In this document: positions 15,700 to 17,716 of the stretch, piece after piece
How the letters are laid out: each line of letters starts with the position of its first letter
How positions within the stretch are numbered: position 1 is the stretch's first letter
Assembly (NCBI GenBank): GCA_018304615.1
Contig: JAGVVV010000009.1
Span: 45,160-109,159, forward strand
Source: Candidatus Aenigmatarchaeota archaeon
Lineage (GTDB): Archaea; Aenigmatarchaeota; Aenigmatarchaeia; CG10238-14; SCSR01
Length of the DNA stretch: 64,000 nucleotides
Direction: 5' to 3'
The notes under the pieces: generated by a model
The model's input: the letters and a program-made list of their open reading frames with translations, nothing else
What the model was told of the DNA's origin: nothing
The model's database searches: none
Program-made: the position numbers and the translations under genes

Positions 15700-15785
15700 G
15701 CCTCGGTAGCTCAACTGGCAGAGCAAAGATATCGCTCATCTGCTTCGTAAGCAGTAGGTTGAGGGTTCAAGTCCCTCTCGAGGCT
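15700..15785 (+). tRNA. tRNA-Thr(CGU) with about 13-nt non-canonical intron at the D-arm/anticodon-stem junction (about 26-28)
   Basis: GCCTCGG-TA-GCTC-AACTGGCA-GAGC-A-A[AGATATCGCTCAT]CTGC-TTCGTAA-GCAGT-AGGTT-GAGGG-TTCAAGT-CCCTC-TCGAGGC-T; 86 nt. Confidence 0.75.
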
Positions 15786-15832: not shown

Positions 15833-16126
15833 ATGCAATTGCTTTTAAACATTCAATCAAAGGACTTTGGGAAACTGAAAGATGTTTTTCTCAAAGATGA
15901 TACTGTAGGAAGGGCTAGCCTGACTTTTAAGGATGCGAAGATGTACGGAGGGAAGGAAGGATATTACATTTATGTCTCTGGACTCGACGAAGCTTGCAAG
16001 AAGGCTTTAGAACTTTGCAAAGATTTGGCGAAGAAAGTCACTGGAAAAGAGAAGGAAGGATTCTTGAAGAAATTGAAAGAAGAAGAGGACAGGGCAGCTG
16101 AAGGAATGGGTGGAATTTTCGGTTAA
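15833..16126 (+). CDS. hypothetical protein with ribosomal-stalk-like C-terminal tail
   Basis: 97 aa; C-terminus KKLKEEEDRAAEGMGGIFG; stop codon abuts tRNA-Gly with 0-nt spacer. Confidence 0.5.
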   Translation: MQLLLNIQSKDFGKLKDVFLKDDTVGRASLTFKDAKMYGGKEGYYIYVSGLDEACKKALELCKDLAKKVTGKEKEGFLKKLKEEEDRAAEGMGGIFG

Positions 16127-16219
16127 GCGGTTGTAGTCCAGCCTGGTAAGACACGAATTCCAAAAATGTAGTGGAACCCTGCCACGGTCGGGACCCGGGT
16201 TCAAATCCCGGCGGCCGCA
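16127..16219 (+). tRNA. tRNA-Gly(GCC) with 20-nt non-canonical intron inside the anticodon stem (about 28-30)
   Basis: GCGGTTG-TA-GTCC-AGCCTGGTA-AGAC-A-CG[AATTCCAAAAATGTAGTGGA]ACC-CTGCCAC-GGTCG-GGAC-CCGGG-TTCAAAT-CCCGG-CGGCCGC-A; anticodon stem pairs perfectly only after excision. Confidence 0.7.
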
Positions 16220-16289
16220 TCCGAATTTGAGAAAGATAACAAAGGCTTATATTAAGTGTAAAAGAATTATAATTTAGTCAGGTGAATCG

Positions 16290-16847
16290 ATGCCTTTGTT
16301 CGGAAAAAAGAAGGAAGAACCAGTAAATGTTTCTCAGATGAAACCAGTCGAACAAAAGGAGCCTGAAGAAAAACCTTCCGAAGCTGTCGAATTGCTTAAG
16401 ATGAATCTGCAAAGATCACAGATGCCTCAACAAAAGCAAGAACTTCCAATGCCGCAGATGACTGTGAAGATTCCTGAACCTGTTGAAGAAGAGCCTGAAG
16501 AAAAAAAAGAGCCTGCCCAGTCCGCACCACTTTTCATAAAGCTTGACAGGTACAAGAGCATCCTCCATCAGATGTCAGAGATTAAGATGACAATGCTGAC
16601 TGTGAAGAACACTTTGTCTGTCATCAATGAGATGGATAAACTGAAAGCTGACAGCATGAAGATGATTCAAGACGCAGTTGCAAGAGTCGAGAAAAAACTT
16701 GTAGCGTTGGACACGGAATTCCTAAAACCCTCGGGATTTCATGAGATGATACCGCAACAGATGGCGAGAGGAGACATTCACAATGAATTGGATGCTCTGA
16801 AAGGACAAATCGAAGCTCTGAGATATGAGATGGAAGAAACTGCCTAA
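16290..16847 (+). CDS. hypothetical protein: acidic/Pro-rich disordered N-half, coiled-coil C-half
   Basis: 185 aa; PEEKPSE...EEEPEEKKEP then PLFIKLDRYKSILHQMSEIK... heptad-like region. Confidence 0.45.
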   Translation: MPLFGKKKEEPVNVSQMKPVEQKEPEEKPSEAVELLKMNLQRSQMPQQKQELPMPQMTVKIPEPVEEEPEEKKEPAQSAPLFIKLDRYKSILHQMSEIKMTMLTVKNTLSVINEMDKLKADSMKMIQDAVARVEKKLVALDTEFLKPSGFHEMIPQQMARGDIHNELDALKGQIEALRYEMEETA

Positions 16848-16881
16848 CTTTTAAATAATAACTGATTCTTAGATAGTTTAT

Positions 16882-17003
16882 GCAGGGGTAGCCAAGGCTG
16901 GTTAAAGGCACAGCGCTCAAGATTTTCTTGAGCTTTGATTCCAAGATGAAAAAAGAAACGCTGTCGGTTAGTCCGTTCGTGAGTTCGAATCTCACCCCCT
17001 GCA
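16882..17003 (+). tRNA. tRNA-Leu(CAA), class II, with about 36-nt canonical intron (37/38)
   Basis: GCAGGGG-TA-GCCAAGGCTGGTTAAAGGC-A-CAGCG-CTCAAG[36 nt]A-CGCTG-TCGGTTAGTCCGTTC (long variable arm)-GTGAG-TTCGAAT-CTCAC-CCCCTGC-A; followed by a T-run. Confidence 0.85.
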
Positions 17004-17135
17004 TTTTTTTATTTTAAAAATAATTTTAGAGAAATCAAAAACTTTTTGAAAAGATTGTGGATTTATATTAGGATGTTGTGAAGGAGATTTCTGCCAGTAA
17101 AAAGAAAAGTAAGAAATCAAAAAATTATATCAAAT

Positions 17136-17420
17136 TTACTTTTCAAGCAAGGCTTCGTATGCTATGAATATAGTTCCAATCAGCGCAAACAGGAAGCCGA
17201 TTATTTCGAACACTTGTCCGAGAGGAGCAACTACTGAAAGAACTCCACCTGTGGATAGAGATGGAACTCCCATAAACACTGCTGAGAACAGGAAGAACGC
17301 TCCTGCGACAGCAAACCAATTGAATCCTTTCTCGGCTTTGTGTCTGAGTTTAGCCCATTCGGCAAACACTGGCGCTAAAAGGAACGCCAAACCAAGCCAA
17401 AGGACTTGTTCGAATACCAT
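17136..17420 (-). CDS. small membrane protein (3 TM), hypothetical
   Basis: 94 aa, three hydrophobic helices. Confidence 0.45.
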   Translation of the reverse strand: MVFEQVLWLGLAFLLAPVFAEWAKLRHKAEKGFNWFAVAGAFFLFSAVFMGVPSLSTGGVLSVVAPLGQVFEIIGFLFALIGTIFIAYEALLEK

Positions 17421-17518
17421 TTGTTCACCTTAATTACTATTTGTTAAGATACTCCATATAAAGGCTTCTACCACGTAGAAAGAGTCTTGTTATAAACTTG
17501 GAAAATAAAATTAGTTTT

Positions 17519-17716
17519 ATGGAGATTTTGGAGATAAAATGTCCTAGATGTGATTCTCAATCAAAAGAATTGATTGAATGCGAGTCGTGTAAAAAAATCG
17601 GATGCGTGAAATGCATAACTCAGAGAAGCAAGCAGTGGTTGTGTGGAGATTGCAGATTAGGAAACACTTATCAACCGACTAATGATCCGTCTCCACTGTC
17701 AGCGATATTCGGTTAG
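17519..17716 (+). CDS. zinc-ribbon protein with ribosomal-stalk-like C-terminal tail
   Basis: ATG at 17519 preferred over the TTG at 17498; MEILEIKCPRCDS...CESCKK.GCVKC...CGDC (8 Cys); C-terminus NDPSPLSAIFG. Confidence 0.5.
   Translation: MEILEIKCPRCDSQSKELIECESCKKIGCVKCITQRSKQWLCGDCRLGNTYQPTNDPSPLSAIFG

Follow-up and report, generated by a model that had tools for sequence, protein, structure and literature searches.

To our knowledge, archaeal and eukaryotic ribosomes gather their GTPases and ABCE1 by a single known handle, the C-terminal tail of the ribosomal stalk. The descriptions of this tail that we are aware of concern stalk proteins alone, or its role as a target hijacked by toxins. 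Full-text searches of the literature recovered the stalk tail, its partners and its hijacking by toxins, and found no cellular protein outside the stalk that carries such a tail. Here we describe two small proteins encoded in a 64,000-nucleotide stretch of DNA (referred to as the window) from a Candidatus Aenigmatarchaeota archaeon, a tiny symbiotic archaeon belonging to the Aenigmatarchaeota (DPANN). A 97-amino-acid (aa) protein, named fam1, and a 65-aa protein with eight cysteine residues, named ZnR, both end in a stalk-like tail that is attached to a scaffold predicted to be unrelated to the stalk. Judged from the sequences, there is about an even chance that both tails are functional docking peptides of the stalk type, which would engage the pockets of translation factors.

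Of the systems described so far, the closest is the tail of aP1 and aP0, the stalk proteins of archaea (P1, P2 and P0 in eukaryotes; Pfam family PF00428, Ribosomal_60s). As in these proteins, the tails of fam1 and ZnR lie at the extreme C-terminus, are predicted to be flexible and consist of an acidic or charged run followed by the order G-phi-small-small-aliphatic-Phe-Gly, where phi is a hydrophobic residue. P. horikoshii P1 no longer binds aEF1A when residues L106, F107 and G108 are deleted, and a hydrophobic pocket accommodates the conserved Phe of P1 when it is in complex with aEF1A-GDP, aEF1A-GTP, aEF2, aIF5B and ABCE1 (PMC6791870). Residues equivalent to these three are kept in fam1 and ZnR, and the Met-Phe variant seen in ZnR is native to Aeropyrum P1 at these positions (PMC6791870). 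The example of a stalk tail and the role of L-F-G that a first, sequence-only reading of the locus had put forward agree with this work. Nevertheless, fam1 and ZnR differ from aP1 in that they lack both the helical dimerisation domain at the N-terminus and the Ala/Pro hinge, and in that their genes lie outside the L11-L1-P0-P1 cluster. In every genome compared, fam1 furthermore shows the fixed signature E-G-[FM]-G in place of the A-G-L-[SAG] of aP1, and neither PF00428 nor the NCBIfam model for aP1 (TIGR03685) matched fam1 or ZnR.

Both C-termini resemble the tail of aP1

The genome analysed comprises 785 kb in 22 contigs with a G+C content of 39.6%, and the window is part of one of these contigs (C10). 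The gene for fam1 is located at 15833..16126 and the gene for ZnR at 17519..17716, both on the plus strand. These open reading frames (ORFs) confirmed both genes and both stalk-like C-termini as they had first been described. The C-terminal end of fam1 is EEEDRAAEGMGGIFG, the longer stretch being KKLKEEEDRAAEGMGGIFG and the last residues EGMGGIFG; the stalk-like module covers residues 80-97, KLKEEEDRAAEGMGGIFG (16070..16123, plus strand). In ZnR the stalk-like tip reads NDPSPLSAIFG (17681..17713, plus strand). Both elements are supported by family conservation and by hhalign. For ZnR, the homologues support a start at the ATG at 17519 and not at the upstream TTG at 17498, as they begin with M-x-[IL]-x-CPxC.

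Position profiles counted from the C-terminus were compiled for 50 fam1, 11 ZnR and 26 aP1 tails. The aP1 tails follow the pattern E-[ED]-A-x-A-G-L-[SAG]-[SA]-L-F-G, those of fam1 the pattern [DE]-[KR]-A-x-E-G-[FM]-G-x-[IL]-[FL]-G, and those of ZnR an acidic stretch that leads, after a variable part, to [LF]-x-[SA]-M-F-G. Common to fam1 and aP1 are an acidic residue at position −11, Ala at −9, Gly at −6, a hydrophobic residue at −5, a small residue at −4, an aliphatic residue at −2, an aromatic residue at −1 and the final Gly. In all three sets the penultimate residue is Phe or Leu, rarely Gln or Ile, and never Tyr. That the match to aP1 extends beyond the minimal motif suggests that the tails may indeed be of the stalk type. 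When an alignment of 27 aP1 sequences was used for comparison by hhalign, fam1 was matched only through residues 86-97, which fell on residues 83-94 of aP1, C-terminus to C-terminus. Residues 53-65 of ZnR were placed on residues 82-94 of aP1, likewise end to end.

The frequency of the tail motif was determined for 917 greedily called ORFs of at least 60 aa from the whole 785-kb genome. Only three of them, namely aP1, fam1 and ZnR, end in [LMIFV]xx[LMIV]FG, compared to an expected number of about 0.28 (0.27 by composition, 0.29 by internal motif frequency). The motif is rare in this proteome; that it might be common there by chance was a case that the sequence-only reading had named as speaking against its own proposal. 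Outside the window, the RNA polymerase subunit A′ (C15:17953-20445, minus strand) ends in ...DRIADRLFG. It shares L-F-G with the stalk tail but has neither a hydrophobic residue at −5 nor an acidic run, and the resemblance was judged to be due to chance.

fam1 is a widespread family with a predicted alpha/beta domain

According to the AlphaFold2 model of fam1, which was calculated from the family alignment (mean predicted local distance difference test score, pLDDT, 85.8), residues 1-68 adopt a beta-alpha-beta-beta-alpha-beta arrangement of the ferredoxin/PII-like type. A long charged helix (residues 72-92) and a hydrophobic tip (residues 92-97) with a pLDDT below 50 follow. Ferredoxin-like and PII-like proteins such as PstA/DarA, GlnK and CutA share the predicted topology and gave the best Foldseek matches in the PDB. 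Nevertheless, these matches are weak (E 0.02-0.2, template modelling score 0.43-0.53), no sequence similarity exists, and fam1 adds a helix of 20 residues and the stalk-like tip. No match to fam1 was found in Pfam or NCBIfam, and none of the Pfam, PDB-sequence and Foldseek searches gave a significant match to its folded domain.

Homologues of fam1 in a large protein collection (n=242) are all named hypothetical, and none has a Pfam domain. Members occur in 62 species genomes of the Aenigmatarchaeota type and in six Thermoplasmata. Within the phylum, fam1 is a single-copy gene in 125 of the 151 sampled genomes, in 80 of 96 genera and in 76 of 89 high-quality genomes. Overall identity within the family falls to about 30%, and residues 80-97 are the best-conserved segment (3.3 bits per column versus 2.46 elsewhere, as measured over 67 sequences). 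Here the consensus is K-x-K-E-E-[ED]-[KR]-A-x-E-G-[FM]-G-x-[IL]-[FL]-G, and the order G-phi-G-x-phi-phi is kept within the last 10 residues in 64 of the 67 members. Some members end in ...GGIFD, resembling the ...GLFD of the eukaryotic stalk. The Thermoplasmata members terminate in KEEEKKADEGMGFLFG, which is close to the eukaryotic stalk tail ...DDDMGFGLFD.

Variants of fam1 are encoded at loci L114-L119 (genomes G096, G098, G099, G101, G145 and G171). Four of them carry a zinc-ribbon insert (CxxC...CxC) within the alpha/beta domain and have a length of 129-166 aa, and in two the domain is duplicated in tandem (190-194 aa). All of these variants keep one stalk-like tail, at the C-terminus.

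Partial matches of the fam1 profile inside the ORFs for AlaRS and GatD are weak and go back to similarity of charged helices, and were judged spurious. The possibility that fam1 is a divergent aEF1B, a protein of similar size and alpha/beta fold, was rejected since no EF1B is among the Foldseek matches and the genome encodes a normal aEF1B (PF00736, 60 bits).

ZnR keeps its tip behind a variable linker

The AlphaFold2 model of ZnR (mean pLDDT 79.9) shows a small, FYVE/PHD-like zinc finger with two zinc sites, whereas linker and tail have a pLDDT of 50-60 and are predicted to be disordered. Like the cross-brace fingers of the FYVE and PHD type, ZnR has its eight Cys residues in four CxxC pairs, and the best weak matches were to FYVE, PHD, B-box and Rab-effector fingers. 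None of these is significant (E >0.1): the best Foldseek matches, FYVE/PHD fingers, have E values of 0.12 or worse, and those to the Pfam models FYVE_2, PHD and B-box lie between 0.2 and 0.5. Searches of Pfam and NCBIfam assigned ZnR to no significant family. ZnR also differs from these fingers in being a stand-alone archaeal protein of 60-75 aa with a stalk-like tail.

The ZnR family has about 40 members, all of them unannotated, in which the eight Cys residues are invariant. Linker length ranges between about 10 and 40 residues, and most members have an acidic linker. In the first alignment (n=17, the protein of the window included) 11 sequences share the [MI]FG end and six show close variants, e.g. 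SIFK, SMFN, SIFD and KWFS. A further 19 members were examined, and all 19 end in [AG]-[FL]-[SA]-[SA]-[MI]-F-G. The tip is conserved as [LFIM]-x-[SA]-[MI]-F-G behind the variable linker, and this preservation is the signature of a short linear motif. The alternative raised by the sequence-only reading, an unconserved zinc-finger tail, does not agree with these alignments.

The tips of both models are predicted to be disordered and exposed, which is consistent with a docking peptide. The earlier proposal that stalk-like tails sit on two unrelated, non-stalk scaffolds is borne out by the predicted folds, an alpha/beta domain and a zinc finger, together with the conservation of the tails. It had also been proposed that neither N-terminal region resembles the helical dimerisation domain of aP1. 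This holds as well, given the AlphaFold2 folds and the restriction of the hhalign matches to the tails.

The genome encodes separate, ordinary stalk proteins

A normal L11-L1-P0-P1 cluster is present on contig C11, outside the window, while fam1 and ZnR are located on contig C10 among tRNA genes. The gene for aP1 (94 aa; C11:21948-22232) directly follows those for P0, L1 and L11. The protein starts with MEEVYAALMLH, and its C-terminal end is EEAAAGLSALFG / KKAEEAAAGLSALFG. The search for bona fide aP0 and aP1 genes that the sequence-only reading had asked for thus revealed a separate aP1, contrary to the case in which fam1 would be the only aP1 orthologue of this genome.

P0 (uL10; 273 aa; C11:21126-21947) ends in ETKQESGGVS and has no hook. 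The C-terminal hook is also missing from every separate P0 that was readable in the other Aenigmatarchaeota examined (P0 loci L074-L141), where most P0 proteins are short (about 250-300 aa). P0 of the fam1-bearing Thermoplasmata keeps the full hook and ends in AGLSSLFG. In two Aenigmatarchaeota loci, L099 (G020) and L077 (G012), P0 and P1 are fused in one frame, giving open frames of 349 and 383 aa; an example of the junction is ...MGRCEL-MEYVYSVLLLH..., i.e. a P0 that bears the P1 domain and the hook.

fam1 is part of a conserved tRNA cassette

The genes for fam1 and ZnR are 1.4 kb apart and interleaved with tRNA genes on the same strand, as had been noticed from the sequence. Three such genes were found. 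The first, at 15700..15785 (plus strand; Rfam tRNA model, 43 bits), encodes tRNA-Thr(CGU), in which a non-canonical intron of 13 nucleotides (nt) interrupts the anticodon stem on its 5′ side. The second, at 16127..16219 (plus strand; 39 bits), encodes tRNA-Gly(GCC), and here the non-canonical intron measures 20 nt and again falls in the 5′ half of the stem. ARAGORN missed the third, at 16882..17003 (plus strand; 41.8 bits), which is 122 nt in length and contains a long intron. For the first two genes ARAGORN gave the labels Ala(CGC) and Trp(CCA), which are wrong according to alignments with intron-less orthologues. The anticodon loop of tRNA-Thr, CTCGTAA, was deduced from L019, L033 and L045, which have an intron-less tRNA-Thr(CGU) orthologue at this position, and the loop of tRNA-Gly, CTGCCAC, from alignment to intron-less tRNA-Gly(GCC) orthologues.

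The gene for tRNA-Thr ends 47 nt upstream of fam1, and no spacer (0 nt) separates the stop codon of fam1 from the gene for tRNA-Gly, which begins on the next base. This arrangement is common in the phylum: of 62 Aenigmatarchaeota loci, 38 have a tRNA gene, mostly for tRNA-Gly(GCC), that begins on the same strand no more than 60 nt beyond the stop codon of fam1, and often the distance is 0-7 nt. Just upstream of fam1, ARAGORN detected tRNA-Thr(CGU) in at least 18 related loci. A Shine-Dalgarno-like GGTGA is present 4 nt upstream of the ATG of fam1. TATA-like sequences precede tRNA-Thr, the gene for a coiled-coil protein and ZnR in the window, and a weaker AT-rich box lies between tRNA-Thr and the start of fam1. 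Because of the positions of the TATA-like boxes, the GGTGA site and the weaker AT-rich box, co-transcription of fam1 with the tRNAs appears likely at the 3′ junction and may or may not extend to the 5′ side.

The coiled-coil protein (185 aa; 16290..16847, plus strand) is a syntenic neighbour whose gene follows that of fam1 in 35 of 63 loci (L006, L014 and L016 among them). After its start, M-x-[LI]FG-[KR]-K-K (M-P-LFG-KKK in the copy of the window), comes a linker of low complexity that leads to the conserved box APLF[IV]K[LI]D[RK]Y, and the C-terminal part is a coiled coil. Its N-terminus recalls those of ESCRT-III/CHMP proteins, and no relative was found in Pfam or the PDB. A membrane protein of 94 aa is encoded between fam1 and ZnR (17136..17420, minus strand), with orthologues at the same place in L001, L113 and L145. 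In some relatives, ORFs for homing endonucleases of the LAGLIDADG type are located beside the tRNA genes of the cassette (L004, 5514-6182, minus strand; L145, 3767-4399).

The genes form a conserved block with the order radical-SAM gene, tRNA-Thr, fam1, tRNA-Gly, coiled-coil gene, membrane protein, ZnR and, in some cases, AMMECR1. ZnR is located 1.4-2.3 kb downstream of fam1 in four lineages (those of the window, L006, L014 and L145/L146). In other lineages its distance from P1 is 3.6 kb, or it is located elsewhere; the intervening genes are unrelated. A functional linkage of ZnR with fam1 or with P1 was not adopted, since inherited synteny explains these distances equally well. In Thermoplasmata no tRNA gene flanks fam1; at L066 (4188-4790) it overlaps the start of a gene for a P-loop kinase-like protein (AAA_17/AAA_18).

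Possible function of the stalk-like tails

A stalk-type docking peptide would consist of a charged or acidic segment followed by phi-small-small-aliphatic-Phe-Gly, here placed on a scaffold that is unrelated to the stalk. The exposed tip would most likely insert its aliphatic-Phe pair into those pockets of aEF1A, aEF2, aIF5B and ABCE1 that accept the tails of aP1 and aP0; the published pocket of aEF1A is located between its domains 1 and 3, and that of aEF2 is a groove at the N-terminus. In this way each protein could hold or recruit one such factor away from the stalk, and would serve either as a tether or adaptor for whatever is bound by the folded domain or as a competitor of the stalk. For fam1 this would mean that a factor is tethered or delivered to the client of the alpha/beta domain; ZnR could act likewise through its zinc finger. 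The analysis itself shows both sequences and how well they are conserved, the folds predicted for them, an aP1 that is separate, how rare the motif is, and the synteny. Which factor is the partner, and whether the effect is one of recruiting or inhibiting, we infer from these. The presence of the usual set of partners (e.g. aEF1B) and of a normal aP1 in the genome also suggests a stalk-type function. Throughout the phylum fam1 has tRNA-Thr on one side and tRNA-Gly on the other, which links it to translation genes. As a near-core, single-copy gene between two tRNA genes it fits a constitutive, translation-linked role better than that of a decoy used only under stress.

Several points weigh against a stalk-type docking peptide. 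The tail of fam1 differs from that of aP1 of the same genome in 29 of 29 genomes (EG[FM]Gx[IL][FL]G versus AGL[SAG][SA]LFG), and Phe is replaced by Leu in about a third of the fam1 tails. Because its tail is distinct, fam1 may prefer another site, another partner or a subset of the partners. Co-variation of the fam1 and aP1 tails across the 29 genomes was uninformative, as the aP1 tails are nearly invariant. The distribution of ZnR is patchy (5 of the 25 Aenigmatarchaeota genomes searched, the one of the window included), and inherited synteny may be all that places it near fam1. Finally, nothing in the folded domains points to a client, as Pfam, PDB-sequence and Foldseek searches returned no significant match.

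The main rival explanation is that the tails dock to a different receptor, such as the alpha ring of the 20S proteasome in the manner of a hydrophobic-tyrosine-X (HbYX) motif, Cdc48 or another AAA+ or chaperone machine for which the proteins would be adaptors, or that they form a membrane-touching tip. The last three residues, [ILM]-[FL]-G, do resemble a hydrophobic-aromatic-X outline, and the consistent difference between the fam1 and aP1 tails would fit a distinct receptor. Furthermore, the coiled-coil neighbour bears a similar M-x-LFG-KK at its N-terminus, which implies that tips of the LFG type may have other uses in this lineage. A strict HbYX reading nevertheless fails because Tyr never occurs at the penultimate position in any of the tails profiled. 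Tails that are devoid of Tyr and tolerate Leu, as is often the case in fam1, are atypical of HbYX motifs as established for PAN and Cdc48. A three-residue HbYX motif does not account for the likeness to aP1, which spans 12 positions and takes in the preceding acidic run as well as the invariant Ala and Gly. We regard a different receptor as rather unlikely. Quite improbable, in our view, is that fam1 acts in trans as an extra arm of the stalk, with its folded domain on the ribosome and its hook in place of the one lost from P0. This idea takes account of the hookless state of the readable separate P0 proteins of the Aenigmatarchaeota, that of the window genome included, and of the near-universal, single-copy occurrence of fam1 in the phylum. 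The phyletic distribution does not support such a compensation: the families f11 and f19 of the phylum have neither fam1 nor a hook on P0, so that fam1 is not simply a replacement for this hook, and the fam1-bearing Thermoplasmata retain the complete hook on P0.

Two further explanations can largely be set aside. A resemblance of the tails by chance, without specific function, is very improbable. The minimal motif is short, and the Poisson probability of two extra occurrences (about 0.03) is a weak argument by itself. The conservation of the tails is the stronger argument against chance: both are preserved family-wide at low overall identity, in ZnR even across different linker lengths. Even less tenable is the suggestion of the sequence-only reading that the 97-aa protein could be a highly divergent stalk protein, i.e. 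a paralogue of P1. The two proteins are of similar length (97 versus 94 aa) and have similar tails, but a canonical aP1 is encoded in the L11-L1-P0-P1 operon and the predicted fold of fam1 is alpha/beta and not a helical dimerisation domain. Moreover, the hhalign match covers the last 12 residues only, and PF00428 gave no match even at E = 1.

Taken further, the stalk tip could be a portable plug of archaea. We put forward tentatively, with somewhat less confidence than the docking function itself, that fam1, transcribed together with tRNAs, and ZnR hold aEF1A, aEF2, aIF5B or ABCE1 off the stalk. They would then form a second, non-ribosomal layer for pooling or delivering these factors, in a lineage in which P0 has no hook. 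If this is true, cells also use the handle of the stalk away from the stalk, in order to park, deliver or withhold translation factors. It would further connect the two proteins to the other peculiarities of the stalk in this phylum, the hookless P0 and the P0-P1 fusions, and, for a whole DPANN phylum, it would offer a first hint at what a near-core gene without annotation does.

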